DNA from: Alkalispirochaeta sp. | Lineage (GTDB): Bacteria > Spirochaetota > Spirochaetia > DSM-27196 > Alkalispirochaetaceae | Assembly (NCBI GenBank): GCA_965242725.1 | Contig: CBDESZ010000022.1 | Span: forward strand, 1 to 64,000 | Length of the DNA stretch: 64,000 nucleotides | Direction: 5' to 3' | Part shown: one piece after another, positions 459-40,345 of the stretch | How positions within the stretch are numbered: position 1 is the first letter of the stretch | How the letters are laid out: the number at the start of each line of letters is the position of its first letter | Notes under the pieces: generated by a model | Databases searched by the model: none | Told to the model about the DNA's origin: nothing | Seen by the model: only the letters and a program-made list of their open reading frames with translations | Position numbers and translations under genes: made by a program

Positions 459-908
459 GTGAAACGCGTTGCAGTCATTCACGGACCAAATCTCAATATG
501 CTCGGCAGGCGTGAAGTCGGGATCTACGGCGGAAAAACCCTTGACTCAATCAACGATGAGATTGCCCGGGAAGCGGAGGCGCTCAGCGTGCAGATCGAGT
601 TTCACCAGTCCAATGTGGAGGGTGATCTTGTTACCATCATTCAGGACGGTCGGGGGCGGCTGGACGGCATCATTTTAAACGCCGCGGCATACACCCACTA
701 TTCGGTGGCATTGCGCGACGCAATCGCCGCCGCACAGGTGGCAACGGTTGAAGTTCATATTTCAAACATCTTCAAACGGGAAGACTTTCGCCATGTTTCG
801 TACGTTGCCCCCGTGTGTGTCGGGCAGATCTGCGGGTTGGGGTCTCACGGGTACATCCTTGCCCTCAGGGCGCTGATGGAAGAGCAGTTTGACCCGTGGC
901 TGCCGTAA
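459..908 (+). CDS. aroQ: Type II 3-dehydroquinate dehydratase, canonical copy
   Basis: HGPNLNMLGRRE..IYG, QSNVEG, NAAAYTHYS, EVHISN..RE.FRH motifs all intact; GTG start at 459 inferred. Confidence 0.95.
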   Translation: MKRVAVIHGPNLNMLGRREVGIYGGKTLDSINDEIAREAEALSVQIEFHQSNVEGDLVTIIQDGRGRLDGIILNAAAYTHYSVALRDAIAAAQVATVEVHISNIFKREDFRHVSYVAPVCVGQICGLGSHGYILALRALMEEQFDPWLP

Positions 909-921
909 AGGAGCGGAGGTT

Positions 922-1395
922 GTGAATCGACGAAGGTATCTGGTGATCTCCGGACCCAATCTGAATCTCCTGGGACAGCGAAAGACGTCCATCTATGGAG
1001 CCGGCTCCCTTGAAGATATCCATACGAGCCTTCATTCCCGGGCGGAGGAATTGGGCGTTTCCGTGGAATGTATGCAATCCAACAATGAAGGCGAGATCAT
1101 TGATGCCCTTCAGGCGGCACCGGGGAAAACGGACGGCATTATCATTAACGCCGGCGCCCTGGCTCACTACAGTTATGCCTTGCGCAGTGCCGTCGGCGCG
1201 ACGCTCCTTCCGTGCATCGAAGTGTTTATTTCAAACGTTCACGCCCGGGAGTCGTTCCGACACACATCGGTCATTGCCCCCGTCTGTGTGGGGGTCATCG
1301 GTGGATTCGGGAAGAAAAGCTATCTTCTCGCGCTGGAGGCGCTGGTCAATCTCACCGCCGCCGTAACGACAGACGACGGAAAGGATCGATCATGA
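922..1395 (+). CDS. aroQ: Second type II dehydroquinase paralog with altered active site
   Basis: GPNLNLLGQR..IYG, QSNNEGEIID, NAGALAHYS; EVHISN is replaced by EVFISN; GGAGG before GTG 922. Confidence 0.85.
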   Translation: MNRRRYLVISGPNLNLLGQRKTSIYGAGSLEDIHTSLHSRAEELGVSVECMQSNNEGEIIDALQAAPGKTDGIIINAGALAHYSYALRSAVGATLLPCIEVFISNVHARESFRHTSVIAPVCVGVIGGFGKKSYLLALEALVNLTAAVTTDDGKDRS

Positions 1396-2156
1396 GCTTT
1401 CGCTGGTCAAAAACTGTCGACAGCCCCGGTGATGCGTTCCTCGCACCTTCCGAAGGGTTTTCAAACGTTCAATTGCCCCTCGCCGATCTCATGGAGTTCT
1501 CGGATGCCGGGTTTTTGGAGTACCGGAGGCAAATGACCGAGGCAGGTCTCGTCGCGGAGGTATGTTCCAGACTGTTTCCACCCGATGTCGTCGTGACGGG
1601 ACAGGGCTTCAACCTCTACGTATGGGTCGAGTATCTCAAGAATGCCATGGCACGGGTGGCGGAACTCGGGTGTACCCGCCTTGCATGGAGCAACGGCCGA
1701 TCGAGAATTCTGCCGTGGGAAGAGAATGTCGACGAGATGAAAGAACAGGCGATGCAGTTCCTCTTCATGGTCTGTGACGTCGCCCAGACCTATGATATGA
1801 GCGTTGTGATTGAACCGCTCAGTTCCGAACGCACAAATTTTCTTACCTCGATGGAGGAAACCGACTCCTTCGTACGTCAAATCGGGAAAGAAAATCTGTC
1901 GTCCATGGTAAGCCTCCGTGATTTGGCGGCGATAGGACTATCTCCGCAATCATTGCACCAATGGAAGCATCGCATCTCCCACGTGCTCATTGAGAATCCG
2001 GAGAGAAGCACCACGTTGAGGACCGCGCCGTCGCAGGATGATTCCTTTGACTACAAGCCGTTTCTCGATGGTTTGCGTGACATCGATTATCAGGGCCTCA
2101 TCGCACTGCCGTCGGACGCGACTTCGACAACACTGCAGTTCTGCATCTCCCTGTGA
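1392..2156 (+). CDS. Sugar phosphate isomerase/epimerase-like TIM-barrel protein, degenerate metal site
   Basis: ATGA overlap with upstream stop; VVIEPL..E.TNF and FDYKPFLDGLRDIDYQG segments typical of the xylose-isomerase-like TIM barrel family. Confidence 0.7.
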   Translation: MSFRWSKTVDSPGDAFLAPSEGFSNVQLPLADLMEFSDAGFLEYRRQMTEAGLVAEVCSRLFPPDVVVTGQGFNLYVWVEYLKNAMARVAELGCTRLAWSNGRSRILPWEENVDEMKEQAMQFLFMVCDVAQTYDMSVVIEPLSSERTNFLTSMEETDSFVRQIGKENLSSMVSLRDLAAIGLSPQSLHQWKHRISHVLIENPERSTTLRTAPSQDDSFDYKPFLDGLRDIDYQGLIALPSDATSTTLQFCISL

Positions 2157-2180
2157 GTCCGCCCGGAAAGGTCGTGCCCG

Positions 2181-3059
2181 TTACGTATCGACGGAGGATT
2201 CGGTGATTTCCGACATGACACGATGCATGATCGCCGTCGGTTCCGGCTTGCCGGTGATCAGGGCAAATCCCTTTATTCCCTGATTAATAACCATGCCGAT
2301 ACCGTTCATGACCTTACATCCGACCCGCATTGCGTCCTTCAACAGCCGTGTCTCCGCCGGGTTGTAGGTAAAATCGGCAACAAGGATTTCGGGCCGCAGC
2401 AGGGCGGGATCTACCGGTGTCCGGTCGGTGTGGGGATACATTCCCACTCCCGAACCGTTTATCAGAACGTCACTTCCCTGTATGAGTCCCTCAATCGGCG
2501 CTTTGTCGAAGGGATAGTACTCGGCGCAGCTACGGATGCGATTATTGATGTCACCTGCCAGACGTTTGGCCATGTCATCAAACGTGTCAAGGATGATGAG
2601 GCGCCTGGCGCCGTGATAGGCGAGCGTGGACGCCACTGCCCGGGATGCGCCGCCTGCCCCGAAAAACAGGAAGGTTGATGTCTCGATGTCAATTGCAGTT
2701 TCTTCCTTGAACGCCATGAGAAAGCCGATGCCGTCGGTGTTGTACCCCTTCAACACGCCGTCGCGAACGGTGACAACGTTGACCGATCCGATCATCGCCG
2801 CAAGTTCGTCAAGTTCGTCCAGGTAATCAATGATCTGAATCTTGTTCGGCTTGGTCACATTGAAACCGGCGTAGTTCATACACCGGATTGCCTTCACGAT
2901 TGTTTCCAGATTCTCGTTTTCTACCTCTATCGGAAAGTAGAGATAGTCCATATCGAGCTCACGGAAGGTGGCGTTGAATAACTGAGGTGCAAAGGTCTGG
3001 GCCAGAGGATATCCAAGGAGACTTACAAGGCTGGTCTTCGTCGAAATTTTCATTGTCAT
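2181..3059 (-). CDS. aroE: Shikimate/quinate dehydrogenase family protein
   Basis: NVTKPNK, GSVNVV, GYNTDG, GAGGASRA, TYNP, GMVINQG motifs; start at ATGA overlap with upstream gene. Confidence 0.9.
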   Translation of the reverse strand: MTMKISTKTSLVSLLGYPLAQTFAPQLFNATFRELDMDYLYFPIEVENENLETIVKAIRCMNYAGFNVTKPNKIQIIDYLDELDELAAMIGSVNVVTVRDGVLKGYNTDGIGFLMAFKEETAIDIETSTFLFFGAGGASRAVASTLAYHGARRLIILDTFDDMAKRLAGDINNRIRSCAEYYPFDKAPIEGLIQGSDVLINGSGVGMYPHTDRTPVDPALLRPEILVADFTYNPAETRLLKDAMRVGCKVMNGIGMVINQGIKGFALITGKPEPTAIMHRVMSEITESSVDT

Positions 3060-4240
3060 TCCTCGCCTTCGAGATATATGCGTCGACCTTCTTCCGCCGA
3101 CTGATAGGCGGCATAGATCACGCGAACCGTCAAAGCGGACAGGTCGAATCCCGATTGGGGTGGTCGACCGAATGCTGCGGCTTCCATGAAATCCTGCAGT
3201 TCCCCGGTGTATCCCCTTATCACCTCGTCCGCCACAAAGGCCTTGTTCCACCCGGTCCTGGAAGAAAGCATTTCCGAGAGGTAGACCTCCTCCATATTAT
3301 CTTCGTCGAGAAAATAGGTCCGTAACAGATCGGTAGGTGTAAGCGTGGAATGGAGGACCCCGTCGTTGCAGTACGCCTCCACGTAGTTTCGGGATCCTCC
3401 GAGCGCCGTATCGGAGGCAATTATCAGCGCCCGGGTGCCGTCGGAAAAGGACAGGGTGACTGCTGCAAAATCCTCAACGTCCTCGGGATACGCCCGAAGA
3501 TGGCGATGTTCATATTCCGAGAGGGATGCGCTGGCATGCCCCGTCTCGGCGTGTACGGCGACTACCCTGATTTCTTCGTTCCGGGCCTCTCCTTCAACCT
3601 TCTTGAGCCACAGCACGCCCGTAAGAGGGTGAATTCCCGCCCTGATAAGCACGCCGCCGCCGGTCCTGTTCCACTGACCGGCTACAGACGAAGAGGAACC
3701 GTTCAGGCTTTCCTCGCCTTTCAGAAAGAGAACCTTGCTCTTCCGGGCGCGGATAATTTCCGCCGTCTTCTGCAAGGCGGGGCTGTATACGTAGTTTTCG
3801 GCATACATGAAATGCTTCCCCGACCGTCTCACGATAGACTGGAAGTCCCTGATACTGCGGTCCATTTCGGCCGCCATTTGAGCCTTCGGGACCTTTGTCC
3901 CCACCGGTTCCGGGTCACCGGGCATGCCGAAGTACCCCGTCAGGGGCTTCTCGCAAATCACATGCTTCCCCGCCTTCAGAGCGCGTTCGGCAATCGGAAT
4001 ATGCAGATGTGGTGGTGTGCAGATATCGATGACATCGATGGACGGATCTTCGATTAGGTGTTCAATCGAATCGGTGACCTGTCCAAATCCAAACTGTTCG
4101 GCGATACGCCGCGCCCGCTCTTTGTCAATATCGGCGACGGCCGCCAGCACAGGCTGGAGGCCATGGACCAACTTGTATGCCGCACCATGAAGTGATGCGG
4201 CGTATCCGCCTCCAACCAGGCCGACTCGTACCTCTTCCAT
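3056..4240 (-). CDS. Gfo/Idh/MocA family oxidoreductase
   Basis: VGLVGGG Rossmann start, ICTPPHLH, GKHVICEKP, GGGVL..GIHP. Confidence 0.9.
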   Translation of the reverse strand: MEEVRVGLVGGGYAASLHGAAYKLVHGLQPVLAAVADIDKERARRIAEQFGFGQVTDSIEHLIEDPSIDVIDICTPPHLHIPIAERALKAGKHVICEKPLTGYFGMPGDPEPVGTKVPKAQMAAEMDRSIRDFQSIVRRSGKHFMYAENYVYSPALQKTAEIIRARKSKVLFLKGEESLNGSSSSVAGQWNRTGGGVLIRAGIHPLTGVLWLKKVEGEARNEEIRVVAVHAETGHASASLSEYEHRHLRAYPEDVEDFAAVTLSFSDGTRALIIASDTALGGSRNYVEAYCNDGVLHSTLTPTDLLRTYFLDEDNMEEVYLSEMLSSRTGWNKAFVADEVIRGYTGELQDFMEAAAFGRPPQSGFDLSALTVRVIYAAYQSAEEGRRIYLEGEE

Positions 4241-4315
4241 TCAGGGGTGCCTCCACATCCGATCCGGCCGGGCACCGGGCAAAAGGGATTGACCCATCGC
4301 GGTGCCGATTCGTCC

Positions 4316-5773
4316 TCAATACTCCCGGTATTTCACCTTCATATCCGTGTAGAAGTCCATGGTCGTGCTTCCAATACCGAAGGGACCGAGGCCGGAATGC
4401 TTTGTTCCCCCGAAGGGCATGTTTCCGCCGCTGACACCCAGGTTATTGATACGCACCATGCCGACTTCAACCTCTTCCTCGAAGTCGTAGGTATAACTCA
4501 AATCGTCGGTGAAGAGGGACGCAGTCAGACCGTACTCGGTGTCGTTGCACACCGCTATCGCCTCTTCCTTCGACTTGACCCGCAAGACCGACAGGACGGG
4601 ACCGAAAATCTCTTCCCGGGCGACGCGCATCGTCGGCGTTACACCGGTAATGACCGTTGGAGCAAAGTAGTGACCTTTGTCGTAGACTCCTCCGGTGAGG
4701 CGAGTTCCGCCTATTGCGATCGTCGCGCCTTCCTTCCGTGCCGATTCGACATACTCTTCCATAGTCTTTACGGCGTCGGCACTGGTAATCGGTCCCATAT
4801 CCACACCCTCTTCCGTGCCGGGGCCAACCTTCATCCGTCCGGCGCTCTCTGCAAGCAGCTTTTCCAGTTCCGCGGCCTGAGACTCGTGAACGATCACCCG
4901 GCTGATGGCCGTGCATCTTTGACCGGCATTTGAAAACGCCGCCTTGACAATCTTGGGCGCGACATCCTTTATATCTCGGTAATTCACGACAACCGCCGCG
5001 TTTTTTCCGCCCATTTCCAATTGAACTTTCGCAAAATTCTCTGCGGCCATTCGGTTTATATTCCGCCCGACTTCTGTCGATCCGGTAAAGCTGACGCCAC
5101 GAACGAGAGGATTACCCACCAGAGCCGCGCCGACCGTTCTTCCGGAGCCGGTGAGAAGGTTCAGGGCGCCCGGCGGGAGTCCCGCCTTGTCAAAGAGTTC
5201 GGTAATGATGACCGCCGTGAGGGGCGTGACCGTCGCCGGCTTGAAAACCACGGTGCAGCCGGATACGAGGGCGGGGACGATTTTGCGGAGAGGATTCAGA
5301 ATTGGAAAGTTGAACGGTGAGATCGCCGCGATGACGCCGATGGGAACCCTGTCGGCGACGTTGGTCGTACGCTTGCTGTCGGAAGGACGGGCAATGCCCT
5401 CCAGCCGTAACGCCTCGCCTGCGGTAATGAGCAGCTCTTTTGTGCCGCGTGTCGGTTCGGCCAACGCCTCCCTGTAGACTTTTCCCTGTTCGAGAACAGC
5501 GGCTTCCGCCAGTCGTTCCTTATTGTCTCCCAGCAACTCAACAAATCGGTAGATATAGGACGTCCGTTCCGAAGGCGAAAGATTCTTCCAGGTCAGAAAG
5601 CTCCGGTGCGCCGCATCAACGGCTCGCGCCGCGTCGTCCGGTGTAGAAAGGGGAAATTGTCCAACAACTTCAGTGGTATTGCCGGGAGAATATGTTTCAT
5701 AGGTTTTTCCGTCCGACGCGTCGGTCCACGTGCCGTCAATATAATTCTGAAAACGCGAAGCTGTATTGACCAT
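4316..5773 (-). CDS. NAD(P)-dependent aldehyde dehydrogenase
   Basis: ISPFNFP, KPA, FTGSTEVG, LEMGGKN, NAGQRCTA (catalytic Cys), EEIFGPV. Confidence 0.95.
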   Translation of the reverse strand: MVNTASRFQNYIDGTWTDASDGKTYETYSPGNTTEVVGQFPLSTPDDAARAVDAAHRSFLTWKNLSPSERTSYIYRFVELLGDNKERLAEAAVLEQGKVYREALAEPTRGTKELLITAGEALRLEGIARPSDSKRTTNVADRVPIGVIAAISPFNFPILNPLRKIVPALVSGCTVVFKPATVTPLTAVIITELFDKAGLPPGALNLLTGSGRTVGAALVGNPLVRGVSFTGSTEVGRNINRMAAENFAKVQLEMGGKNAAVVVNYRDIKDVAPKIVKAAFSNAGQRCTAISRVIVHESQAAELEKLLAESAGRMKVGPGTEEGVDMGPITSADAVKTMEEYVESARKEGATIAIGGTRLTGGVYDKGHYFAPTVITGVTPTMRVAREEIFGPVLSVLRVKSKEEAIAVCNDTEYGLTASLFTDDLSYTYDFEEEVEVGMVRINNLGVSGGNMPFGGTKHSGLGPFGIGSTTMDFYTDMKVKYREY

Positions 5774-5791
5774 TGATTTCCTCCTTCAGAT

Positions 5792-5842
5792 TGTATACCC
5801 TTGGTATATTATGGGTATACCACGTAATACCCGGGTCGTCAA
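5792..5842. promoter_or_regulatory. Divergent promoter region with GTATAC-based operator, putative GntR site
   Basis: TGTATACCC (5792-5800) and ATGGGTATACC (5811-5821) form an inverted pair; minus-strand TTGACG at 5842-5837; the same ATGGGTATAC 10-mer lies upstream of the gntR gene. Confidence 0.65.
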
Positions 5843-5883
5843 GAAAAATACTCGCTCCACCTGTCCCGAAGGAGAAACAGTGT

Positions 5884-7014
5884 ATGAACGTCCCTTTCAA
5901 TGTGGATAAGTTCAATGATTTGCTGGCAGCAGCTTCTGTCGATTTGCTGCTCGTTCATACCCGCCACAACGTCAGGTACCTGACCGGCGGGTACTATTAC
6001 CACTTTCATGCGGTATCCACTCGAATGGACCGCTCCCGGTATATTCCATTCCTCTGTATCCCCCGGGGCAACCTGGAAAAGACGTTCTTCGTGTGCAGAC
6101 ACGAGGAACACGATCAGTTGCGGTCGGAGGAACTCTGGATACCAAACTGGGTTGAGACAATCAGAGGTACCCGTCCGGCCGCTCAACGCCTGATCGAGGC
6201 GATCCGCGCCCACGGCTTGTCAAACGTGCGAATCGCCGTTGAGATGTCGTTCATCCCGGCAGACGTCTATACCGCCCTGGTCGACGCATTTCCGGATGCC
6301 CGTTTTTCAGACGCATCACCGATTCTCGAAAGTCTCCGGGCGGTCAAAAGCGATCGTGAAATAGAACATATTCGAAGTGTCTATGACCGGACCGCCGAGG
6401 CGGTACATGAAGCGTTCACGGAGAGCCGGGAGGGAGATACCACGGCGATGATTGAGTCGCGGGTCCGTGTTGCCATGGCAAAACGGAACCTGACATTCCT
6501 CTTCGCCCTGATCAGTGCAGGCCCGCACTTTTCCCGGGCACCTTCAGATCGTATACGCTGGGAGCGGGGGCAGATCCTTCATATCGATGCCGGCGGCGGG
6601 GACGACGACTATATCGCCGATATCTGCAGAACCGGCTGTATGGGTGAGCCCCCGCCCCTTGCAGCTGAATTACACGAGGAGTGCCAGTCGATTATTGACG
6701 CCGTGAGGGAAACTATACGACCCGACGTACCGGTAAACAGCGTCCTTGCGATGGGCCGGTTGGCCGCGGAGCGCACGAAACACGCCCGATACTGCCGATT
6801 TGTCGTACACGGTACGGGAATGGTTCCTCATGAACAACCGTATTTCTCCCCCGACGAGAGGCGTCCCCTTGAACCGGGTATGGTCATTTCAATCGAGACG
6901 GATTTTCTCCACCCCGACACGGGGCATTTGAAAATAGAAGAGTCCGTTGTGGTGACCGGGTCGGGGTGTGATGAGCTGGGCCGACTGAGCAGGGAATGGT
7001 ACGTCCCGTCGTGA
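5884..7014 (+). CDS. M24 (Xaa-Pro peptidase/creatinase fold) metallohydrolase
   Basis: NVRYLTG, LRAVKSDREI, IDAG...YIADICRT, HGTGM.PHE, ISIE, KIEE metal-ligand pattern; AAGGAG before ATG 5884. Confidence 0.85.
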   Translation: MNVPFNVDKFNDLLAAASVDLLLVHTRHNVRYLTGGYYYHFHAVSTRMDRSRYIPFLCIPRGNLEKTFFVCRHEEHDQLRSEELWIPNWVETIRGTRPAAQRLIEAIRAHGLSNVRIAVEMSFIPADVYTALVDAFPDARFSDASPILESLRAVKSDREIEHIRSVYDRTAEAVHEAFTESREGDTTAMIESRVRVAMAKRNLTFLFALISAGPHFSRAPSDRIRWERGQILHIDAGGGDDDYIADICRTGCMGEPPPLAAELHEECQSIIDAVRETIRPDVPVNSVLAMGRLAAERTKHARYCRFVVHGTGMVPHEQPYFSPDERRPLEPGMVISIETDFLHPDTGHLKIEESVVVTGSGCDELGRLSREWYVPS

Positions 7015-7017
7015 CGG

Positions 7018-8052
7018 TCAGGAGAATTCAAAAAGTACCTTCATTGCGTCTCCTTCCCGGGTGGCCATAAACGCACTCTCCGCTTCTTCAACGGTCTTTC
7101 GGTGGGTTATGACCGGCGCAAAATCGATGACTCCCGATCCCATGATCTGAATCGCCTGAATGAAATGTCTCGTCAGTTGAGCAACATCTCCAAAGGTTGT
7201 CACACCCTTGCGCAGGATCTGCAGCGGGCTGAATTCCGCCGATGGATAGAGACCAAAGAGAGAAACCCGCCCCAGGGGACCAACAAGATCAAAGGCAAGA
7301 CTCGTCGCCTTTGGTGAACTCGCCGTCTCCACAACGATATCCGCTCCTTCACCGGCGGTGTAATCCTTAATCGCCTCTACCGGGTTGTCCACATCGGCGC
7401 GAATGATGTGGGCCGCCCCGATCTTTCGTGCTATTTCAAATCGCTGCGCGTCCTGGGAAAGTCCGACCATTGTCACATTCCGGATTCCCGCCGCGAGAAA
7501 TGCAAGCAGATGGAGAATTCCGATCGGACCGGGCCCGATAATCGCCGCACTTTCGCCGACTATCGGCTTTACCTGTTCCAGGGTACGCACCACAAGCCCG
7601 AATGGTTCGGTCAAGGCGGCCGTATCAAACCCCACGGAATCGTCAATGCGGTGAGCCTGCTTTGAAGGAATAGCAATGTACTCTCCAAACGTACCGTCCC
7701 GGGTCAACCCGATGTGCTCCCAGTGAGTACATAAGTTTTGATGTCCCGTGAGACACTGACGGCAATGACCACACCCTGCAATGGGTTCCAGGGCAACACG
7801 CTGGCCCACCCGTGCGGCGGATACGCCGTTACCGATCTCGACGATCTCTCCTGCCCCTTCATGGCCCATGACCATGGGAATCGGGACGGGGCGTCGGCCG
7901 ATGTATTTATTCTGTAATACCGTTACGTCGGTGTAGCATATTCCGGTGGCCCTGACTTTTACCAGCACATCCCCGTCTCCAACCCGAGGCGTGGGAACAT
8001 CCGTTACGGACAGGACGCCCGCTTCCGCCGTGGCCTTTACGATTGCTTTCAT
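7018..8052 (-). CDS. Zinc-dependent medium-chain alcohol dehydrogenase
   Basis: GICYTD, GHEGAG, CGHCRQC..G..NLC structural zinc site, GPGPIG. Confidence 0.93.
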   Translation of the reverse strand: MKAIVKATAEAGVLSVTDVPTPRVGDGDVLVKVRATGICYTDVTVLQNKYIGRRPVPIPMVMGHEGAGEIVEIGNGVSAARVGQRVALEPIAGCGHCRQCLTGHQNLCTHWEHIGLTRDGTFGEYIAIPSKQAHRIDDSVGFDTAALTEPFGLVVRTLEQVKPIVGESAAIIGPGPIGILHLLAFLAAGIRNVTMVGLSQDAQRFEIARKIGAAHIIRADVDNPVEAIKDYTAGEGADIVVETASSPKATSLAFDLVGPLGRVSLFGLYPSAEFSPLQILRKGVTTFGDVAQLTRHFIQAIQIMGSGVIDFAPVITHRKTVEEAESAFMATREGDAMKVLFEFS

Positions 8053-8076
8053 CTGAAGCCCCCCTTATCGCTCTCA

Positions 8077-9129
8077 TCACTCCCGACCGAATTCGATCGC
8101 CCGGCCGGTTCTTGCCGACTCAATAACGGCCATCGTTACTTTGAGTGTCTGCAGTGCGTCCTTCCCGTCGGTACGGGGTTTCTCCTTTCCCAGTACGACG
8201 TTGCAGAAATGGCGCATTTGAAGGGGATAGGGATCGGCCGTTTTGAGATTCAACTGTGCAGTTTGGACCGGGTGTTGCCACCCCCGGGGACCGCCTTTGG
8301 GATAGGATACTTTCAACATTTCGGGAAACGCGATGGACGCCTCGGTCCCGAAGAAATGGTAAATGTTCCCGTTACCCTGATAGAAATGGTCAAATTCCGC
8401 CATCGTCTGTTCGTACGCCCAGATAGAGGGCACCGTGTCGGTGAGGAGAATGGTGGCGATTGCCCCGTCGGCCATTTGCAGCGTCAGCCCGACGGTGTCT
8501 TCCACCGGGAAACCGCGCGCCTCGTTACTGACGACGCCATAGACTGAAGAAATTTCGCCGTAGAGGTACCGCAGGTTGTCGATTTCGTGAATCAGGTTGA
8601 TCAATACCGGTCCACCCCCCGGTTTTTTTCGCCAGGGGCCCTGGACAAAGTATTCATCCGGTTTCAACATCGCCCACAGCATGGAGATGCCGACAATCTT
8701 CCCCAACTCGCCTCTCCCGATTATTTCTTTCATCGCCGTCATCAGCGGATTGAAGCGTCGGTGATGTCCCACCAGCAGATGAACGCCGTTCCGTTCCGCC
8801 GCATCTATGAGTTGTTGTGATTCCGCGATTGTGGGTGCGATCGGTTTCTCCATGAACAGGTGGAGACCGTGATCGGCACACACCGTTCCGACTTCCCCGT
8901 GCCGGTCGTTGGGTACCGCGACAACCACGCCGTCCAGCTTCTCGGTCTCTATCATTTCCACATAATCACGGTAGAAAGGAATTCCGGCGGCATCGGCGGC
9001 TTCCTTTTTTGCCGGATCGGAATCACACATCGCTACATACTCACATCGTTCTTCCCGCTTCAGGGACTTTGTGTGCACCGTTCCGATCATTCCCACTCCG
9101 ATTGACGCGAGTCGTGCTCGTTCTTTCAT
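8077..9129 (-). CDS. Gfo/Idh/MocA family oxidoreductase
   Basis: IGVGMIG, MEKP, VGHHRRFNP, GGGPVLINLIHEID; start at ATG 9129 after GAGGAG. Confidence 0.92.
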   Translation of the reverse strand: MKERARLASIGVGMIGTVHTKSLKREERCEYVAMCDSDPAKKEAADAAGIPFYRDYVEMIETEKLDGVVVAVPNDRHGEVGTVCADHGLHLFMEKPIAPTIAESQQLIDAAERNGVHLLVGHHRRFNPLMTAMKEIIGRGELGKIVGISMLWAMLKPDEYFVQGPWRKKPGGGPVLINLIHEIDNLRYLYGEISSVYGVVSNEARGFPVEDTVGLTLQMADGAIATILLTDTVPSIWAYEQTMAEFDHFYQGNGNIYHFFGTEASIAFPEMLKVSYPKGGPRGWQHPVQTAQLNLKTADPYPLQMRHFCNVVLGKEKPRTDGKDALQTLKVTMAVIESARTGRAIEFGRE

Positions 9130-9157
9130 GTGACGTTCCTCCTCACGGTCTGTATTT

Positions 9158-10441
9158 CTATCGCACGTAGTCAAATAGTTGCGGAAGCCAAAGCGTGATC
9201 GGCTCGATATACGTCACCAGGAGAAGGACTACAATTTCTATACCGAGAAAGGGCAGGACCGCCCGTGCGACCTCTTCGAGCTTCAGTTTTGTCAGACCGC
9301 ATACCACAAAGAGACAAAGACCGAGGGGCGGGGTGATGAGACCGATCATCAGATTAATGACCACGACGGCACCCAGCGTCACCGGATGAATACCGAAGGG
9401 TGCGGTAATTTGAATGAGCACGGGAACGGTGATGATCATGGCCGCCGTTCCTTCTACAAAGGTCCCGAGAATAAGCAGAACGATGTTGATCCAAAACAGC
9501 AGAGCCACCGGACTCGCGACGAGATCACCGACTATTGCGGCCATTTGCTGCGGTATCTGCTCAATCGCGAGCACCCAGTTAAAAATTGCGGCCGAAGCAA
9601 TGACGATGAAGACGACTCCCGTCGTTTTTGCCGTCCGAACGGCGATATCTTTCAGGGTCCTGAGGTCAAGTTTGTGAAACACAAATCCGCCGACTATCAG
9701 GGCATATACAACGGCAATACCTGACGCTTCCGTCGCGGTGAATACGCCGGAAAGAATGCCTCCAAGGATGATTACCGGCATCAACAACGGAATGAATGCG
9801 GCAACCAGTGCAACAAACATTTCCCTGACGGTCGCTCTCCGGGCGTTTTTGGGGTAATTTCGCTTCCGGGCAATGATAAAGGTCACCCCCATCAAACCGA
9901 ATCCCAGAAGAATTCCGGGAATAACCCCGGCAAGAAACAACGCGGCCACAGATGTTCCGCTTATAAGTGAGTAAATGACAAAAGGAATGCTGGGAGGGAT
10001 AATAGGTCCGATTACCGACGATGATACGGTGACGGCGGCACTGAAGTCCTCATCATACCCCTCTTCATTCATTGCGGGAATCAACATGGAACCGATCGCC
10101 GATGTGTCCGCAACTGCCGAACCGGTAATTCCCGCAAAAAACATGCTCGTCACGATATTGACGTGGGCCAGACCACCCTGGAGATGACCGACAAGAACAT
10201 CTGCGAGACGGACGAGACGTTTGGTTATTCCGGTGCTGTTCATCAGCTCTCCAGCCAGGATAAAGAACGGCACCGCCATAAAAGGGTACACGTCAAGTCC
10301 GGTAAAAAGACGTTGTGCTATGAGCGTCATCGGAATCGAAGGATTCGCGAAAAGGTACGCCGCTGATGCAAAGGCGAGGCCGAAGGCAATGGGCACTCCT
10401 ATCGCCGTTGCGAATGCAAAAACAATGAGCAGCAAAATCAT
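9158..10441 (-). CDS. dctM: TRAP transporter large permease
   Basis: AVPFFILAGELM, GSAVAD, IIPPSIP, FTATEA, IGLITPP.G motifs; very hydrophobic. Confidence 0.95.
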   Translation of the reverse strand: MILLLIVFAFATAIGVPIAFGLAFASAAYLFANPSIPMTLIAQRLFTGLDVYPFMAVPFFILAGELMNSTGITKRLVRLADVLVGHLQGGLAHVNIVTSMFFAGITGSAVADTSAIGSMLIPAMNEEGYDEDFSAAVTVSSSVIGPIIPPSIPFVIYSLISGTSVAALFLAGVIPGILLGFGLMGVTFIIARKRNYPKNARRATVREMFVALVAAFIPLLMPVIILGGILSGVFTATEASGIAVVYALIVGGFVFHKLDLRTLKDIAVRTAKTTGVVFIVIASAAIFNWVLAIEQIPQQMAAIVGDLVASPVALLFWINIVLLILGTFVEGTAAMIITVPVLIQITAPFGIHPVTLGAVVVINLMIGLITPPLGLCLFVVCGLTKLKLEEVARAVLPFLGIEIVVLLLVTYIEPITLWLPQLFDYVR

Positions 10442-10920
10442 GAGTTTCCGTCCTTCAATTCTATGATTGTCCGCTTGATCTGTTGGGCTACCATGAGAAA
10501 TGCGCCGGCACATACCGAGAAATAGGGAACTTGCATGGATATTCCCATTGCCGGAGAGGTCTGCCCCTTCAATCTGTCCATATATTTTAGAGAAAGATAT
10601 GTTAATAGTACTAAAAATGACAGTATAAACATGTTAATGATAAAATCTATCACTTTTCGAATTGACGGTGAGGCGAGTTCTTTGACAACCACAAGGGATA
10701 CGTGATCGTGATCGCGAAGGGCCAGCCCCATACCGAGATAGGCAAACCAGATCATGATATACCTGGCAAACTCCTCGGCCCAGATAATCGGCAAATAGAA
10801 GACGTAGCGGGTAAACACGTTGAATGCGACATTCACGACCATGACGACGAGCATGATCGCCAAGGTATGTTCAATAATGCCGTCGAAAACAAGATATATC
10901 CGCCTGATAGTCCGTATCAC
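10438..10920 (-). CDS. dctQ: TRAP transporter small permease
   Basis: VFTRYVF..PI.WAEEFARY..IW..YLG....DHV, four TM helices. Confidence 0.92.
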   Translation of the reverse strand: MIRTIRRIYLVFDGIIEHTLAIMLVVMVVNVAFNVFTRYVFYLPIIWAEEFARYIMIWFAYLGMGLALRDHDHVSLVVVKELASPSIRKVIDFIINMFILSFLVLLTYLSLKYMDRLKGQTSPAMGISMQVPYFSVCAGAFLMVAQQIKRTIIELKDGNS

Positions 10921-10957
10921 AACGTCACGTCCTTTGGTGTCACATCGTCTGTAAACA

Positions 10958-10987
10958 AATAGGGCGAGTCACCGGACCCGCCCTATT
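10958..10987. other. Intergenic stem-loop downstream of dctP
   Basis: AATAGGGCGAGTC...GACCCGCCCTATT near-perfect inverted repeat, no clear U-tract; position typical of transcript-stabilising hairpins after solute-binding-protein genes. Confidence 0.55.
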
Positions 10988-11001
10988 ATCCAGGTACCGT
11001 T

Positions 11002-12078
11002 TCAGTATTCCGCTTTCATCGCCGCGACGGTCGATTCAACAGCGTCCATCGCTTCCTGAATGAGCGCCGGATCAATCTGTGTTTCCATCCACTCGATGAC
11101 CGCGGGTTGTGCCGCCTGCCGGAATTGCTGCATTTCCTGTTCCGTGGGAACGTACACGTCCATACCGAGTTCCTGGAGCTTGCTGACGCCTGTAGAACCG
11201 AGAGCATTCTGGACACCACGGCCTACGCCGTTGGCGATACGTGCAGAATCAAGAACGACAAACTTCAGCCCCTCCGGGAGACTCTGGAAGAAATCCTCGT
11301 TGATGAGAAACCAGTCGACACCGTAGACGTGACCGTCCAGGGTGATGTAGTCCTGCACCTCCGGGAAATTGGCTCCAAGAATAACCGCCACAGGATTCTC
11401 CTGTCCGTCTACCACACCTGTTTGCAGGGCCGAATAGGTTTCGGGCCACGCAATCGGTGTCGGGGTGGCGCCGAGCGACTTGACCAGGTTCACGAAGACG
11501 GGAGTTTCCTGGACTCGGAATCGCAGTCCCCGCATATCCGCCGGAGTGCGTATACGTCTGCTGTCGTTCGTAAAATGGCGAAATCCAACTTCCGCAAATC
11601 CGAGACATCTGATTCCCGTTTCCTCAAGCAAACGTTCCCGCATCATATCGCCGAACGGGCCATCCATTGTCGCCCATGCAACTGCCTCAGTCGGGAAGAG
11701 ATATGGAATATCCGTGACCATCGCCGGCGGAAAGAAACTTGCCATGACACCGGAGGCGATTCCCGCCTCTATGGTACCGTTTTGTATACCTTCAACGTAC
11801 TCCCGCTCGCCTCCCAGTGCACCTCCTCCGTACACTTCAACGCTGATCTGGCCATTGCTCCGCGCGTTGACCAGGGCTGCAAATGCGATCGCCTGGGTGT
11901 GTTTCCTTGATGTATATACATTCGTCGCATCGGCGTGGGCAAGTTTCAGGACGTACTGGGCGTCCTGGGGCGCCTGTACTTCAGGCTGCTCCTTCGGTTG
12001 TTCTCCCTGTCCTCCCGCAATCGCGAAAGCGGCGACCGCCGTGATCAGGACGATCAGCAACGCTAACTTCTTCATCAT
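11002..12078 (-). CDS. dctP: TRAP transporter substrate-binding protein
   Basis: Signal peptide then AGGQGE; GFRHFT, DMRGLRFRVQ (carboxylate-binding Arg), ETYSALQTGVVDGQEN. Confidence 0.95.
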   Translation of the reverse strand: MMKKLALLIVLITAVAAFAIAGGQGEQPKEQPEVQAPQDAQYVLKLAHADATNVYTSRKHTQAIAFAALVNARSNGQISVEVYGGGALGGEREYVEGIQNGTIEAGIASGVMASFFPPAMVTDIPYLFPTEAVAWATMDGPFGDMMRERLLEETGIRCLGFAEVGFRHFTNDSRRIRTPADMRGLRFRVQETPVFVNLVKSLGATPTPIAWPETYSALQTGVVDGQENPVAVILGANFPEVQDYITLDGHVYGVDWFLINEDFFQSLPEGLKFVVLDSARIANGVGRGVQNALGSTGVSKLQELGMDVYVPTEQEMQQFRQAAQPAVIEWMETQIDPALIQEAMDAVESTVAAMKAEY

Positions 12079-12174
12079 GCCCTCCTTACGATTCGCAGGG
12101 TCAATCCCTGCGGGTAACATTTTTTCCGGGACAACGTCCCGGTTGAAACCATGAAATGCCGACGCGAGTTGTCG

Positions 12175-13140
12175 TCACGACGGATATGCAACCGTATAGA
12201 TGTGTTTGCCGCCCTTATCCACACCTCGCAAAAGCGCGTCGATCTCGTCCTTGTCCCGCTGCGTCAGGTATTTCGCTTCCGGCAGCTTGCCTGCAGGAAA
12301 TCTTTCGAGAACGTCGTCGTGGAGTTTGACTACATAGTCCATAAAGGTCTCGATCGCGTTGTACGCCTTTTCACCCTTTGCCTTTGACGGCTTTCCAAGG
12401 ACTCCTTCGGGATAGACGGCAAATTCGACGCCTCCTCCACCGACGTGACTCTGGCCGGCAAGGGGCAGACCGTAGACGTCTCCGCCTTTATCGATATGGC
12501 CTTCCGGCAGGAACCCCCACGTCTCCGTATCAACTGCGTGTTCCATCTGTATCATCTCCGGAAAGAGAGCCAGACAGACCGAGTTTTCCGCCTCATCTCC
12601 GTGACGGAACGGTGTATCGAAAGGACCTCCGTGGGCTTTGTCTTTAATTCCGTCACCCGCGATTTTCCAGACATCAAGGAAGAAAATCATTGCAGGTACC
12701 TGATATCTCTTGGCCCATTCCTGCATGGCCGAGGGAATTATGTATTCCTGACCGTGACTGCTCATAAGAATCTGTTTCCGGAAACCCGCATTCCAATATC
12801 CCGAAATGATTGAACGGATATAGGCCGAGTTTACGTCGTCCGGAATCGGCACCGTAAATCGCTGTCCCAGATGCGCAAAGGGATGGGAGGCGTAGAAGAT
12901 GGGAGAAGCCACCGTACATCCCGTTTTTTGGGCAATTTGTTCACACATTCGTGTGACAATGAACGTATCCTCGCCCATCGGCTGGGCATCACCGTGGTTC
13001 TCGGTTGAGCCGAAAGGAATGAGAAGAACGTCGTTTTTCTCGAGCCTCATTTCGAGTTCCCGCTTGGTCATTGTGTGATAGTAAATACCGTTCGGTGTTT
13101 CCAGATGTCCACCAGACGGCGGAAGGGTCCACTTTCCCAT
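12175..13140 (-). CDS. iolN: Creatininase-family ring-opening hydrolase, IolN (3-dehydro-scyllo-inosose hydrolase)-like
   Basis: GSTENHG, GEDTF, GYWNAGFRKQI...HGQE, HGDEAE, GFLPEGHIDK, YPEGVLGK; closely resembles Thermotoga IolN as recalled; substrate may differ. Confidence 0.8.
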   Translation of the reverse strand: MGKWTLPPSGGHLETPNGIYYHTMTKRELEMRLEKNDVLLIPFGSTENHGDAQPMGEDTFIVTRMCEQIAQKTGCTVASPIFYASHPFAHLGQRFTVPIPDDVNSAYIRSIISGYWNAGFRKQILMSSHGQEYIIPSAMQEWAKRYQVPAMIFFLDVWKIAGDGIKDKAHGGPFDTPFRHGDEAENSVCLALFPEMIQMEHAVDTETWGFLPEGHIDKGGDVYGLPLAGQSHVGGGGVEFAVYPEGVLGKPSKAKGEKAYNAIETFMDYVVKLHDDVLERFPAGKLPEAKYLTQRDKDEIDALLRGVDKGGKHIYTVAYPS

Positions 13141-13156
13141 ATTACACTCCTTGGTC

Positions 13157-13525
13157 TTAGGCGTTTTCGACGCGATGCTGTTTGAGTTGAGGCGAGTACA
13201 TCCAGACAAATTTCAGGACTTCGTCGCCGGTATTGATGATCTTGTGCTTGGCTCCGGGAGGATTGTAGATACAGACCCCCGGTTCGAGCGGTATTTCTTC
13301 TTCTGCGGTAACAAAGACACCCCTCCCTGCAAGAAAGAACATGACTTCCTCTTCGGTCTCGTGCATGTGTTCCGGAACCATTCCTCCCGGATACGTCTCG
13401 TTGACTCCCATGGCGATATTCTTGGAGCCGACGGTCTTTTCCGATACGAGGATCCAGGAGGTACGGGGCGGATCGCGCCGTTCTCCTTTGACATTCTTTA
13501 TATTCACTACCTTTACAGCCGACAC
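13157..13525 (-). CDS. Cupin domain protein
   Basis: PGGMVPEHMHETEEEV...G.G and PPGAKH cupin metal motifs; AGGAGG before GTG 13525. Confidence 0.88.
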   Translation of the reverse strand: MSAVKVVNIKNVKGERRDPPRTSWILVSEKTVGSKNIAMGVNETYPGGMVPEHMHETEEEVMFFLAGRGVFVTAEEEIPLEPGVCIYNPPGAKHKIINTGDEVLKFVWMYSPQLKQHRVENA

Positions 13526-13580
13526 ATGTTCCTCCTTTTTCTGTCGCATACGTTGTTTTTGGTACACAAATGGGTATCTC

Positions 13581-14651
13581 TCATCCTCCGGTCGCCCCCT
13601 TCGAGACAACGTCGCCAAGGCGGACGGACAATCCCCTTTTTTTAAAGACGGCATCGATCTCCCTGATCGTTTTTGCGTCGATAGTGATGCCTTCCGACCG
13701 CGCCGTCATTTCCCTGATCGCCTCGATTTCTCCGGGAAGATAGATGCGCTCCACTCCCTCGGCCTTTTTTGACGCACGAATTGCCGCGACGTGATGTGAA
13801 ACATGAGACCGGAAAACGGACATCGGCATGAATCGCCCGATGTCGATGGCCATGACCATTACGCCCACACCGGTCGGACCGTCGGGGCGGTGAAAGGTCA
13901 GGACGTCACGACTGAAACTCGATCCCGACAACAGACCGCATACGAGATCGATAAAGAATGCCATTCCATAGCCCTTTGCACCGCCGATCGGCATGAGGGT
14001 ACCCCGCATCGCTTCTGCAGGATCCTCGGTTTCATCTCCATTGGGGGTAAAGGCCCATCCCCTGGGAATGTGTTCGTCCCTGTCCAGGGCACGACGTATA
14101 CGGCCACGGGCGACAACCGTCGTGGACATATCCAATACAATAGGCACGCCTCCATCGGCAGGTGCCGCGATAGAGAATGGATTGGTACCAAAAAAGGCCT
14201 CCGTACCGCCCCAGGGGGCGACGGACGGGGCACTGTTGCACGCGGCGAAACCGATCATGTCCCTTTCAGCGGCCATCATGGAGTACGAAGCCAATAGTCC
14301 TATGTGGTTTGTGTTTCGAATTAATGCCATACCGATCCCGTAGCGGGACGCGGCGTCAATTGCTTGCTCCATGCCCAACGTCGCTGCCACCTGGCCAAAT
14401 CCATTGTTTCCGTCGATGTGGGAGGTCCCGCCGTCCCGGGAAAGGACGACCGCCCGGGTCGGCACATTCAGGACGTGACCCTCAATACGCTCAGCAATTT
14501 TCGGGAGAAAGTTGATGCCGTGAGTCTGGATTCCCCGCATTTCAGCGTGGACGAGGCTGCGCGCAACTACTCCCGCCTCTTCATCAGAGGCGCCGACGGC
14601 AACGAGAAAAGTCCGGGCAACCGATTCCAGATCTTCCACGCTGATCGTCAT
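13581..14651 (-). CDS. Ldh_2 family (ComC/AllD/YbiC-like) 2-hydroxyacid oxidoreductase
   Basis: RGIQTHG, DGNNGFGQ, NTNHIG, GTNPFS, LDMSTT, GGAKGYG, YLPGE. Confidence 0.92.
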   Translation of the reverse strand: MTISVEDLESVARTFLVAVGASDEEAGVVARSLVHAEMRGIQTHGINFLPKIAERIEGHVLNVPTRAVVLSRDGGTSHIDGNNGFGQVAATLGMEQAIDAASRYGIGMALIRNTNHIGLLASYSMMAAERDMIGFAACNSAPSVAPWGGTEAFFGTNPFSIAAPADGGVPIVLDMSTTVVARGRIRRALDRDEHIPRGWAFTPNGDETEDPAEAMRGTLMPIGGAKGYGMAFFIDLVCGLLSGSSFSRDVLTFHRPDGPTGVGVMVMAIDIGRFMPMSVFRSHVSHHVAAIRASKKAEGVERIYLPGEIEAIREMTARSEGITIDAKTIREIDAVFKKRGLSVRLGDVVSKGATGG

Positions 14652-14654
14652 CCT

Positions 14655-15326
14655 TCACTCCTCAACCAGGCCAAGGGATGCGAACACGTTGTCCAGGCCA
14701 CTGAGTTCCACGTTTGGAATCCCTTCCTTGAGGCGTTTGCGTTTGTCCTCCTCTTTACGGACACGAGTCTCTGCAGCCGCCAACACCTCGTCGATTCGGT
14801 CCCGCGGTATCGCGACCACCCCGTCGTCGTTACCAAGAACGAGGTCCCCCGGATGAACGACGACATCTCCGATCAGAATCGGATGGTTTACCAGGCCCAG
14901 GCATTGTTTGCTTGTACCCCGGACGCACGTCCCGCGGCAGAATACAGGGAATCCCATTTCAATGATTTCGGAGCTGTCCCGTATACTGCCGTCAATGACG
15001 AGACCGGCGATCCCTCGGGCGGAAGCGGAAGTCGCCATCAATTCGCCCCAGTATCCGGCTTCCGGAAATCCATCGGTGGCAGCCACTATCACATCTCCGG
15101 GACGGGCGATTTGAATTGCCTTATGCAGCATCAAATTGTCTTTTGGATGACAAAGAACGGTCAGTGCCGGTCCCACTACCGACATACCCTGAGCTATGGG
15201 TTTAATATTTGAACGAATGGCACCGATTCGTCCGGCAGCTTCATGAACGGTAGCTGCGTCCAATTTCGCAAACCTTTTGACAGTCGCAAGGTCCGGTCGC
15301 GGAAACTCTCTGTGGACATGGACCAT
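14655..15326 (-). CDS. RraA-family HMG/CHA aldolase (LigK/GalC-like)
   Basis: ATVHEA, GPALTV...DNLMLH, WGELM, IDGSIRD, PGDLVLGNDDGVV; ATG 15326 fits the AAGGAG spacing. Confidence 0.88.
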   Translation of the reverse strand: MVHVHREFPRPDLATVKRFAKLDAATVHEAAGRIGAIRSNIKPIAQGMSVVGPALTVLCHPKDNLMLHKAIQIARPGDVIVAATDGFPEAGYWGELMATSASARGIAGLVIDGSIRDSSEIIEMGFPVFCRGTCVRGTSKQCLGLVNHPILIGDVVVHPGDLVLGNDDGVVAIPRDRIDEVLAAAETRVRKEEDKRKRLKEGIPNVELSGLDNVFASLGLVEE

Positions 15327-15338
15327 TCGCACGCTCCT

Positions 15339-16013
15339 TTATTTCATAGTCATTATGTACGTCAGTGCATTTTTCAGATGTTCCCGCAATCGTTGTTGAG
15401 CAAGTTCCGTGTTTCCGTCGACGATGGCGTCCAGAATAGCGACGTGTTCGTCGACGATGTGTTCCAATCTGCGTTGAGAAAAACGAGGGCCGAAACTGTT
15501 GCGAATTCTCACGATGGAATCGAGAATTTCCCGATACAGCTGGGACAGTCGTTCGTTCCCGACGCTGTCTATTATTTCAAGATGGAGATCGTCGCAGGCA
15601 TCGTCGGCGCAGAATTCATCTGAACGGCTTATCGAAAGCTGGTTTTGTACGAGCGTATTCCGACGATTGACAAATACAGTTTTGTCATCCAACTGCGCCG
15701 CATGTCGTATGGCCCCGCACTCAATAATTTCCCGAACTTCGAAAACTTCGTGAATGTCCGAGGATGAAATATACGACACAATAGATCCGCGACCGGCGAT
15801 GGTTTTTACCAGACCTTCCCGTTCCAACCGGCGCAAAGCTTCCCGCACGGGGGTCTTGCTCACCCCCAGCGAGTCGGCATACACCGTTTCGTTGATCGGC
15901 GTGCCCGGCTGCAACGTACAGGCGATAATCTGACACCGCAGTTGTTCATAGGCGTATTCAACTTTGTTCTTCGTCGGTACCTGCAACACCTTCAGCTCCT
16001 TCGGTATACTCAC
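15339..16013 (-). CDS. GntR family transcriptional regulator with FCD domain
   Basis: LGVSKTPVREALRRLEREGLV winged HTH; EVREIIE and EHVAILDAI FCD features. Confidence 0.93.
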   Translation of the reverse strand: MSIPKELKVLQVPTKNKVEYAYEQLRCQIIACTLQPGTPINETVYADSLGVSKTPVREALRRLEREGLVKTIAGRGSIVSYISSSDIHEVFEVREIIECGAIRHAAQLDDKTVFVNRRNTLVQNQLSISRSDEFCADDACDDLHLEIIDSVGNERLSQLYREILDSIVRIRNSFGPRFSQRRLEHIVDEHVAILDAIVDGNTELAQQRLREHLKNALTYIMTMK

Positions 16014-16035
16014 AATATACTCTTAGTACATTAGA

Positions 16036-16064
16036 ACTATACGATGGGTATACGGTGCTGTCAA
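16036..16064 (-). promoter_or_regulatory. Sigma70 promoter of the gntR operon with operator in the spacer
   Basis: Minus strand TTGACA-17 nt-TATAGT; the spacer contains GTATACCCAT. Confidence 0.8.
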
Positions 16065-16153: not shown

Positions 16154-16591
16154 TCAGCCCCGGATATCCAACATGACGCCGGAGGAGCGGGTGGATGAGT
16201 ACACGGTCTTGCGTCGGGGAGGGACTTTCAACCCGGCGATCTCCCGGGCTGTTTCGGTTCGTTTTTGGGCAAGAATCTGCCGGTTCCGTCGGTGCAGAAT
16301 CGCAGCTTGTTTGTAGAGGGAATTTATTTCATCCACGTTGGCGAGGATCTCTTCACGTTCTGAGGGCTCGGGAAGTCTCACTATGGCCAACGCGTCCAGC
16401 TCTTCCAGGATTTGTCGTTCTCTGGAGATTGTCTCCTCTACATGGTTCAGGTCATTCTGTTCCAGGGCACGTCGCTGGACCGCGAGAAGGTGCAGGTAGT
16501 GGATCAACAGCTCCCGTTGTCTGTTGCAATGTCGCAGGCGGACTTCAGTGAGGGAAGCCGCCGGCCGGGAGATTCGACGATCAGCCGGCAA
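16154..16591 (-). CDS. FlgN-like flagellar export chaperone
   Basis: Helical protein overlapping the fliS stop; QRE...YL.LL..Q pattern and C-terminal MLDIRG. Confidence 0.6.
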   Translation of the reverse strand: MPADRRISRPAASLTEVRLRHCNRQRELLIHYLHLLAVQRRALEQNDLNHVEETISRERQILEELDALAIVRLPEPSEREEILANVDEINSLYKQAAILHRRNRQILAQKRTETAREIAGLKVPPRRKTVYSSTRSSGVMLDIRG

Positions 16592-36972: not shown

Positions 36973-36991
36973 CGCTCTCATCTCCTCACTG

Positions 36992-38779: not shown

Positions 38780-38780
38780 T

Positions 38781-39760: not shown

Positions 39761-39761
39761 C

Positions 39762-40247: not shown

Positions 40248-40327
40248 ATACGGCCTCCTCGTATCTGTGGTAATTAACGTCCGAATTGTAGCGTCATATG
40301 AAATTTGTTGCAAGAGAAATCGTTTTA

Positions 40328-40345
40328 TTGTTATTCCGTTCACAT
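40328..40345. promoter_or_regulatory. Putative Rex operator
   Basis: TTGTTAT-TCCG-TTCACAT fits the TTGTGAA-N4-TTCACAA Rex consensus; lies in the AT-rich gap between divergent hydC and rex. Confidence 0.7.

Follow-up and report, generated by a model that had tools for sequence, protein, structure and literature searches.

A candidate oxygen-independent, non-aromatic route for quinate and shikimate degradation in a gene island of Alkalispirochaeta sp.

What do genes of the shikimate pathway do inside a catabolic island? In the 64-kb window analysed here (the whole stretch of 64,000 nucleotides, the start of one contig, CBDESZ010000022.1, in an Alkalispirochaeta sp. genome of 4.34 Mb that is 91.8% complete, GCA_965242725.1), positions 459 to 16013 bring together aroQ and aroE genes, a hydrolase resembling an inositol enzyme, a carboxylate transporter and an aldolase expected to cleave CHA (4-carboxy-4-hydroxy-2-oxoadipate). 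Plants are rich in the acids quinate and shikimate, whose described catabolism proceeds via aromatisation and O2-dependent cleavage. The best reading of the genes is a GntR-controlled catabolic island of anaerobes that is oxygen-independent and non-aromatic: quinate and shikimate would be broken down to CHA after hydrolysis has opened the ring, a proposal to which we give a probability of roughly 0.7. The substrate and each enzyme-to-step assignment are what we infer from sequence comparison. The catabolic cluster itself is real, and the literature searched (few subscription papers, no supplements) contains no account of the operon or of a route from quinate to CHA; the proposed route is built from known enzyme families.

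In this route, a tripartite ATP-independent periplasmic (TRAP) transporter, consisting of the large permease DctM (9158-10441), the small permease DctQ (10438-10920) and the solute-binding protein DctP (11002-12078; all minus strand), would take up quinate. NAD-linked oxidation at C3 to 3-dehydroquinate would fall to a Gfo/Idh/MocA protein or to the AroE-family dehydrogenase (2181-3059, minus), a candidate shikimate/quinate 3-dehydrogenase of a cluster-linked subfamily, and in relatives to a short-chain dehydrogenase/reductase (SDR); shikimate would enter through AroE followed by AroQ1 (459-908, plus) running as a hydratase. By analogy with IolM, the Zn-dependent dehydrogenase (Zn-DH; 7018-8052, minus) would oxidise C5, giving 3,5-didehydroquinate, a 2-hydroxy-1,3-diketone that resembles the IolN substrate. 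The IolN-family protein (12175-13140, minus), a candidate ring hydrolase for such diketones, would cleave a C-C bond of this compound to yield HOCH2-CO-CH2-C(OH)(COOH)-CH2-COOH. Ketol-aldose isomerisation by the cupin (13157-13525, minus), aldehyde oxidation by an aldehyde dehydrogenase (ALDH; 4316-5773, minus) here and by an aldehyde:ferredoxin oxidoreductase (AOR) in most relatives, and a last oxidation by the Ldh_2-family 2-hydroxyacid dehydrogenase (13581-14651, minus) would then produce CHA. Finally, the HMG/CHA aldolase (HMG, 4-hydroxy-4-methyl-2-oxoglutarate), of RraA fold (14655-15332, minus), would split CHA into pyruvate and oxaloacetate. The earlier statement that the carbon skeleton matches CHA is borne out by the formulas, for the balance closes: quinate (C7H12O6) loses 2H twice to give C7H8O6, gains water (C7H10O7), is isomerised, gains water and loses 2H (C7H10O8), and loses 2H to become CHA (C7H8O8), which equals pyruvate plus oxaloacetate. 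The exact order of steps is tentative, its chances lying slightly under even.

The grouping of these genes is not due to chance, because the cluster is conserved across phyla. An alignment search of the genome collection with the hydrolase gave 496 relatives, of which the best 80 (58-81% identity) were kept; 42 of the 80 loci are full-length, each at least 20 kb. The hosts belong to the Spirochaetota, Atribacterota, Methylomirabilota, Thermodesulfobacteriota, Bacillota and Chloroflexota, by name largely anaerobic lineages, and the commonest gene order is GntR, aldolase, Ldh_2, AOR, SDR, cupin, hydrolase, TRAP and Zn-DH. Cultured bacteria that carry the cluster include Desulfacinum infernum DSM 9756, Fervidicola ferrireducens Y170 and Thermovorax subterraneus DSM 21563. 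Among the 80 loci, the cupin is present in 74, Zn-DH in 71, Ldh_2 in 65, the aldolase in 65, AOR in 63, DctM in 60, SDR in 53 and aroQ in 26; the full loci contain Zn-DH (42 of 42), the aldolase (41), Ldh_2 (40), the cupin (40), DctM (37), AOR (35) and SDR (32).

An aroQ, aroE or aroD gene occurs in 23 of the 42 full loci (31 of 80 overall), whereas aroQ, aroE and the aldolase are absent from all 117 loci of other IolN-family clades (0/20, 0/80 metagenome and 0/17 Bacillota loci), a comparison tempered by the smaller average length of the control loci (10 kb is reached by 35 of the 80) and by kin that are not independent. Many of these control loci carry IolO-like genes; left out of them were L116, from the same genome as case locus L054, and the aldolase-type loci L269, L271 and L277. 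The expected co-occurrence of aro genes with the core genes was thus found. Several lineages of aro genes are represented in the clusters: besides the aroQ pair of spirochaetes, there are an NC10/deltaproteobacterial aroQ, embedded in the operon, an aroE of QTFAP type, which three groups have, an aroE of NC10 and a type I aroD. Across 84 genomes of the order, aroQ was found in five, namely three of the four with the hydrolase clade and two of the 80 without it; an intact aroQ1/aroQ2 pair is present in three of those four and in none of those 80.

Sequence alone would name the hydrolase an inositol enzyme, a point against a role in quinate degradation, because its score of 474 bits against NF041098 (IolN, 3-dehydro-scyllo-inosose hydrolase; cut-off 245) exceeds the 276 bits of the genome's second IolN copy, which lies in a separate inositol cluster with an IolO above cut-off. 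The AlphaFold model of the island protein (pLDDT 84) confirmed a creatininase fold (TM 0.61-0.64). In a tree of 70 rows, built without T. maritima IolN, all 31 labelled aldolase-linked proteins form one clade (SH-aLRT 100), which groups (96) with six proteins of aldolase-less CoA-transferase clusters; both groups are nested among IolO-linked enzymes. This nesting, the NF041098 score and the presence of Gfo/Idh/MocA proteins and an IolM-like Zn-DH would fit a second pathway for inositol or deoxy-inositol (quercitol), in which the IolN product is converted to a 2-keto-3-deoxy-aldarate for aldolase cleavage and the aro genes are incidental. Such a pathway is very unlikely: in none of the 80 cluster loci does an IolO or IolG orthologue reach 40% identity to the copy in this genome (the best values are 30% and 24%), the genome already has its separate inositol cluster, the transporter is a carboxylate TRAP system, and the aro association is specific to the aldolase-linked clade. 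The hydrolase would work like IolN without being established as an inositol enzyme.

The inositol cluster of the same genome (L001:8900-19200; G000 C31) contains long-form IolN, IolO and IolG-like genes, and the Zn-DH gene upstream in it looks split (217-aa C-terminal open reading frame, ORF). The sister cluster (L260-L266 and L276, in Bacillota genomes G696, G491, G619, G659, G729, G814, G628 and G773) combines an IolN-family hydrolase with a cupin, AOR and/or Ldh_2, a CoA-transferase, a tripartite tricarboxylate transporter and, in most cases, a nitroreductase and a sigma-54 activator; it has neither aldolase nor ring dehydrogenases. As a matter of speculation, it could process a trihydroxy-aromatic acid, gallate for instance, by a reductive route.

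At the other end of the proposed route, the aldolase, compared here with HMG/CHA aldolases such as LigK/GalC, scores 229.8 bits against NF006731 (cut-off 179) and 214.6 against TIGR02798, below its cut-off of 304.5. Compared with PDB 3NOJ, it keeps R40, N71, H75, R123, D124, G144, T145, K147, R195 and E199 and has E in place of D102; N71, H75, R123, D124, G144, T145 and K147 are invariant in all 64 cluster aldolases, and the D102 position is variable. The available portion of PMC5065237 proposes that N71 and K147 bind the carboxylate that is present in CHA and absent from HMG, and states that mutation of N71 or K147 cripples HMG cleavage as well. Oxaloacetate fits as a product, because a phosphoenolpyruvate carboxykinase gene adjoins several clusters. 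The sequence-only reading had recognised no ring dioxygenase; there is none in the island, and the 91.8% complete genome gave no match to PF00775 (intradiol) or PF02900 (LigB) dioxygenases, nor was COX1 found in it.

The enzymes placed between hydrolase and aldolase show one substitution among loci. The cupin has an HxH-x4-E...H metal site, complete in 75 of 76 copies, and weakly resembles sugar isomerases. AOR and SDR are both absent from the window, and its ALDH, which is 2,5-dioxovalerate/alpha-ketoglutaric semialdehyde dehydrogenase-like, appears to replace the AOR of relatives; an ALDH is present in six AOR-less clusters (the window, L023, L024, L025, L105 and L146), and no AOR match was found anywhere in three tested genomes of AOR-less, ALDH-bearing clusters. 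The displacement of AOR by ALDH supports an aldehyde intermediate. The aldehyde oxidation first assigned to ALDH has a candidate enzyme in AOR and, for clusters that lack AOR, in ALDH; ALDH is the minority case, a single one of the 42 full loci having it within 10 kb.

AroQ1 and AroQ2 (922-1395, plus) score 197 and 185 bits, respectively, against TIGR01088 (cut-off 170), and are the only aroQ genes of the genome. AroQ1, a canonical type II dehydroquinase, keeps all catalytic residues (Arg19, Tyr24, His101 and Asp88, Mycobacterium tuberculosis numbering) and probably hydrates 3-dehydroshikimate to 3-dehydroquinate, letting shikimate into the pathway. In AroQ2, His101 is replaced by Phe and Asp88 by Ser, and the remaining active-site and binding residues are kept. 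It belongs to a supported clade of 18 rows in the AroQ tree (six out-of-frame fragments ignored), in which His101 is replaced by F in 15 and by Y, T and Q in one each, and Asp88 by S in all 18. According to the accessible text of PMC6011038, His101 is the proton donor for elimination and Asp88 is essential in type II dehydroquinases. With both residues lost, AroQ2 is probably not a working dehydroquinase; the two AroQ enzymes first read from the island are thus one canonical enzyme and one degenerate paralogue, for which a heteromeric or regulatory role is likely. AroQ1 and AroQ2 are fused at two loci, both in one genome, and a decayed, isolated fusion exists in a same-genus genome without the cluster.

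If the degenerate AroQ2 catalysed a different reaction, it could serve the anaerobic use of gallate, which would be reduced to 3-dehydroshikimate by AroE or SDR in reverse, or hydrated as its keto tautomer by an AroQ-like enzyme, before following the same lower pathway to CHA. However, the de-aromatising steps would be uphill, AroQ is missing from many clusters, and no flavin reductase accompanies the aldolase-linked clade, the nitroreductase occurring in the sister CoA-transferase clade. Gallate is thus a quite improbable substrate.

Two genes of the island had been missed by the sequence-only reading: an M24-family metallohydrolase (5884-7014, plus) and an AP_endonuc_2 TIM barrel of ketose-epimerase type (1392-2156, plus). 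The TIM barrel accompanies the aroQ pair across loci and belongs to the Pfam family that also holds the 3-dehydroshikimate (DHS) dehydratase AsbF. Its position next to aroE and aroQ would suit the ordinary aromatising route, from quinate via dehydroshikimate to protocatechuate, with the barrel as DHS dehydratase and CHA supplied by ring cleavage elsewhere. This explanation is extremely improbable: the barrel in the window lacks two metal ligands (Asp and the terminal Glu) and profile comparison places it nearer ketose 3-epimerases (E 4e-12) than AsbF (2e-6), which rules it out as a DHS dehydratase; the genome has no dioxygenase family match; and the hydrolase, cupin, Ldh_2 and AOR/ALDH would be left unexplained. 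For the same reasons concerning the barrel, the statement that no DHS dehydratase is recognisable in the island stands; AsbF is a weak profile match of the barrel, and no genome-wide search was made for the other families of DHS dehydratases. The aroQ1-aroQ2-TIM triad is conserved (window 922-2156; L145:9550-11263; L140:1018-1926), with catalytic residues lost from both AroQ2 and the TIM barrel, and also occurs apart from the core cluster (L145, L147).

The island AroE reaches 227 bits with its best model, under every equivalog cut-off, and has QTFAP where HSxSP is expected and LDTF, with an Asp replacing the NR motif. Given the meanings that we assume for these motifs (HSxSP as expected; N-R for NADP, an acidic residue for NAD), it looks NAD-type, and neither motifs nor score are those of a biosynthetic NADP shikimate dehydrogenase. 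An AroD-AroE fusion outside the island (33625-35133, minus), with an NADP-type NRS motif, is likely the biosynthetic copy, and the island aroQ and aroE are extra to this housekeeping gene. A third AroE-family gene of the genome (L002:7287-9288; G000 C30) is 38% identical to the island copy and adjoins a Gfo/Idh/MocA gene in a sugar-catabolic region.

Two ring oxidations are proposed, and two dehydrogenases are thus needed. SDR and Zn-DH occur together in 32 of the 42 full loci; nine of the ten without SDR have a second Zn-DH, a Gfo or an AroE, and the two Zn-DH pieces of L039 look like one split gene. In the window, Gfo/Idh/MocA oxidoreductase 2 (8077-9129, minus) is the candidate ring-hydroxyl dehydrogenase; oxidoreductase 1 (3056-4240, minus), with orthologues of 51-52% in 3 of 80 loci, appears accessory. 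Strict mutual exclusion of SDR and Gfo2 was ruled out, 11 loci having both. Two front ends are mutually exclusive: 53 loci have one Zn-DH type and no metal-complete TIM epimerase, 11 have another Zn-DH type together with such an epimerase, and 5 have neither. DctP carries an FRV motif, presumably containing the carboxylate-binding arginine, and at least two DctP types exist across loci.

The two front ends, the plurality of DctP types and the 19 full loci without an aro gene within 10 kb could mean that the same hydrolytic logic serves a different carboxylated cyclitol, such as an epimer of quinate or a product derived from chlorogenate, with aro genes as optional entry points. The sister clade, where cupin, AOR and Ldh_2 occur alongside CoA-transferases and the aldolase is missing, indicates that the module is reusable. 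However, AroQ, AroD and AroE have an established narrow substrate set and were recruited several times, and CHA demands the C1 hydroxyl and carboxyl pattern of quinate; another cyclitol is therefore an unlikely substrate.

Several observations weigh against quinate and shikimate degradation by the proposed route. In addition to the 19 of 42 full loci that lack aro genes, 14 of 50 cluster genomes (incomplete metagenome-assembled genomes) gave no match to aroQ at any position; others have no copy of aroQ or aroE except that of the cluster, which may then serve biosynthesis, and an ORF resembling aroK is found close to L041 and L054. Strict mutual exclusion of AOR and ALDH was ruled out by L093, which has both; five Atribacterota genomes lack an AOR orthologue (best 29-35%) and show no ALDH at their loci, and L083 has no Ldh_2, AOR or cupin nearby. 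The nearest solved DctP structures in the PDB gave no ligand clue, and no Ilyobacter or Propionivibrio name appears among the named matches (few matches are named), nor did a plasmid match link the cluster to Ilyobacter insuetus or Propionivibrio limicola. On chemical grounds, 3,5-didehydroquinate could also lose water and yield gallate.

Profile scans found every gene that the sequence-only reading had named, each in its place. Its description of one GntR island holds for gene content but not for a single transcription unit, since the genes lie on both strands in several units: gntR through Zn-DH (minus), M24 (plus), ALDH-gfo1-aroE (minus) and aroQ1-aroQ2-TIM (plus). The stretch from gntR (FCD type; 15339-16013, minus), its first gene, through Zn-DH is a likely operon because its intergenic gaps are only -7 to 96 bp; ALDH-gfo1-aroE forms a second unit. 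The M24 protein, with metal ligands kept and relatives in 13 of 80 loci, might at a guess be a lactone or ester hydrolase. Two further genes recur near the cluster (for example, L084:15462-16803): an Asp/Glu racemase-family gene (8 of 80 loci) and one for a 210-aa protein without Pfam or NCBIfam match (11 of 80).

Upstream of gntR lies a near-consensus sigma-70-type promoter (TTGACA-17-TATAGT, 11 of 12 positions; 16005-16064, minus), overlapped by an array of GTATA/TATAC sites with an 11-bp period. A like array at 5794-5830, in the divergent ALDH/M24 promoter region, is a candidate GntR operator. Genome-wide, 11 clusters of at least three GTATA/TATAC sites exist, and only those at the gntR and ALDH/M24 promoters are 11-periodic. 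This shared repeat suggests that the ALDH-gfo1-aroE unit is under the same regulator as the main operon. The evidence is moderate because the motif was defined after sight of these two sites and was not found conserved in relatives: no operator common to them was found, the words enriched upstream of 45 gntR genes being the -35 box and AT-rich words.

Close relatives of the window genes are spirochaetal. The hydrolase clade was found in none of 16 same-genus genomes, which suggests acquisition of the island or repeated loss. Flanking the island, FlgN-like and FliS-like flagellar genes were read by eye at 16154-17006; genes at 35221-40343, likewise judged by eye, look like those of a multi-subunit [FeFe]-hydrogenase that includes NuoE/NuoF-like subunits, a possible sink for NADH from the pathway.

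The cluster offers a complete, mass-balanced candidate route, each step of which is open to enzyme assay. If the route is true, it would give a function to an AOR subfamily, to a hydrolase clade whose automatic annotation now names an inositol enzyme, and to the CHA aldolases of anaerobes that lack dioxygenases; the AroQ2 clade reveals a conserved pseudo-dehydroquinase. A wider picture, with odds that we regard as even, combines a phylum-spanning anaerobic route that takes quinate and shikimate to pyruvate and oxaloacetate through hydrolysis of 3,5-didehydroquinate and a cupin-AOR/ALDH-Ldh_2 set of oxidations, a heteromeric AroQ1/AroQ2 whose second subunit lacks elimination chemistry, and a sister CoA-transferase pathway that may handle a reduced aromatic acid, for example gallate.

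Aerobic quinate and shikimate catabolism (qui/qsu/qut) relies on a dehydrogenase, a dehydroquinase, a DHS dehydratase and a protocatechuate dioxygenase. The island shares with it an NAD-type AroE-family dehydrogenase and a type II dehydroquinase as extra catabolic copies, but no DHS dehydratase or dioxygenase was found in it, its dehydroquinase would run in the hydrating direction and one AroQ is degenerate. Ilyobacter insuetus and Propionivibrio limicola reportedly ferment quinate and shikimate without aromatic intermediates, as Brune and colleagues are said to have described in 2002, and we know of no genes for hydroaromatic fermentation in either species; theirs is the phenotype that such a pathway would explain. 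Anaerobes specialised on hydroaromatic compounds are cited in the accessible parts of PMC5562018, PMC4140718 and PMC3035301. Such organisms had been described by 2002, and no genes for them were found in the literature searched.

Closer in chemistry is the inositol pathway of Thermotoga maritima (IolG-IolM-IolN-IolO, TM0411-TM0416), reportedly worked out by Rodionova and colleagues in 2013. Its intermediates are taken here from the accessible part of PMC5931981. Like that pathway, the proposed route would use two dehydrogenations to a cyclic diketone and hydrolysis to a hydroxymethyl-ketone acid, and the island has a Zn-DH beside a creatininase-fold hydrolase that passes NF041098. Unlike it, the island has no IolO or IolG orthologue, a carboxylate TRAP system, a hydrolase in a distinct clade, downstream genes for a cupin, AOR/ALDH, Ldh_2 and a CHA aldolase, and recruited aroQ/aroE/aroD. 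With the 4,5-cleavage of gallate and protocatechuate it has in common a terminal aldolase with the same active-site residues and the predicted products pyruvate and oxaloacetate; in contrast to 4,5-cleavage, no dioxygenase was found, and hydrolysis and oxidation of an alicyclic ring would supply CHA with no need for O2. The cluster thus belongs to neither system, resembling the Thermotoga inositol route at its front end and 4,5-cleavage at its terminal end.

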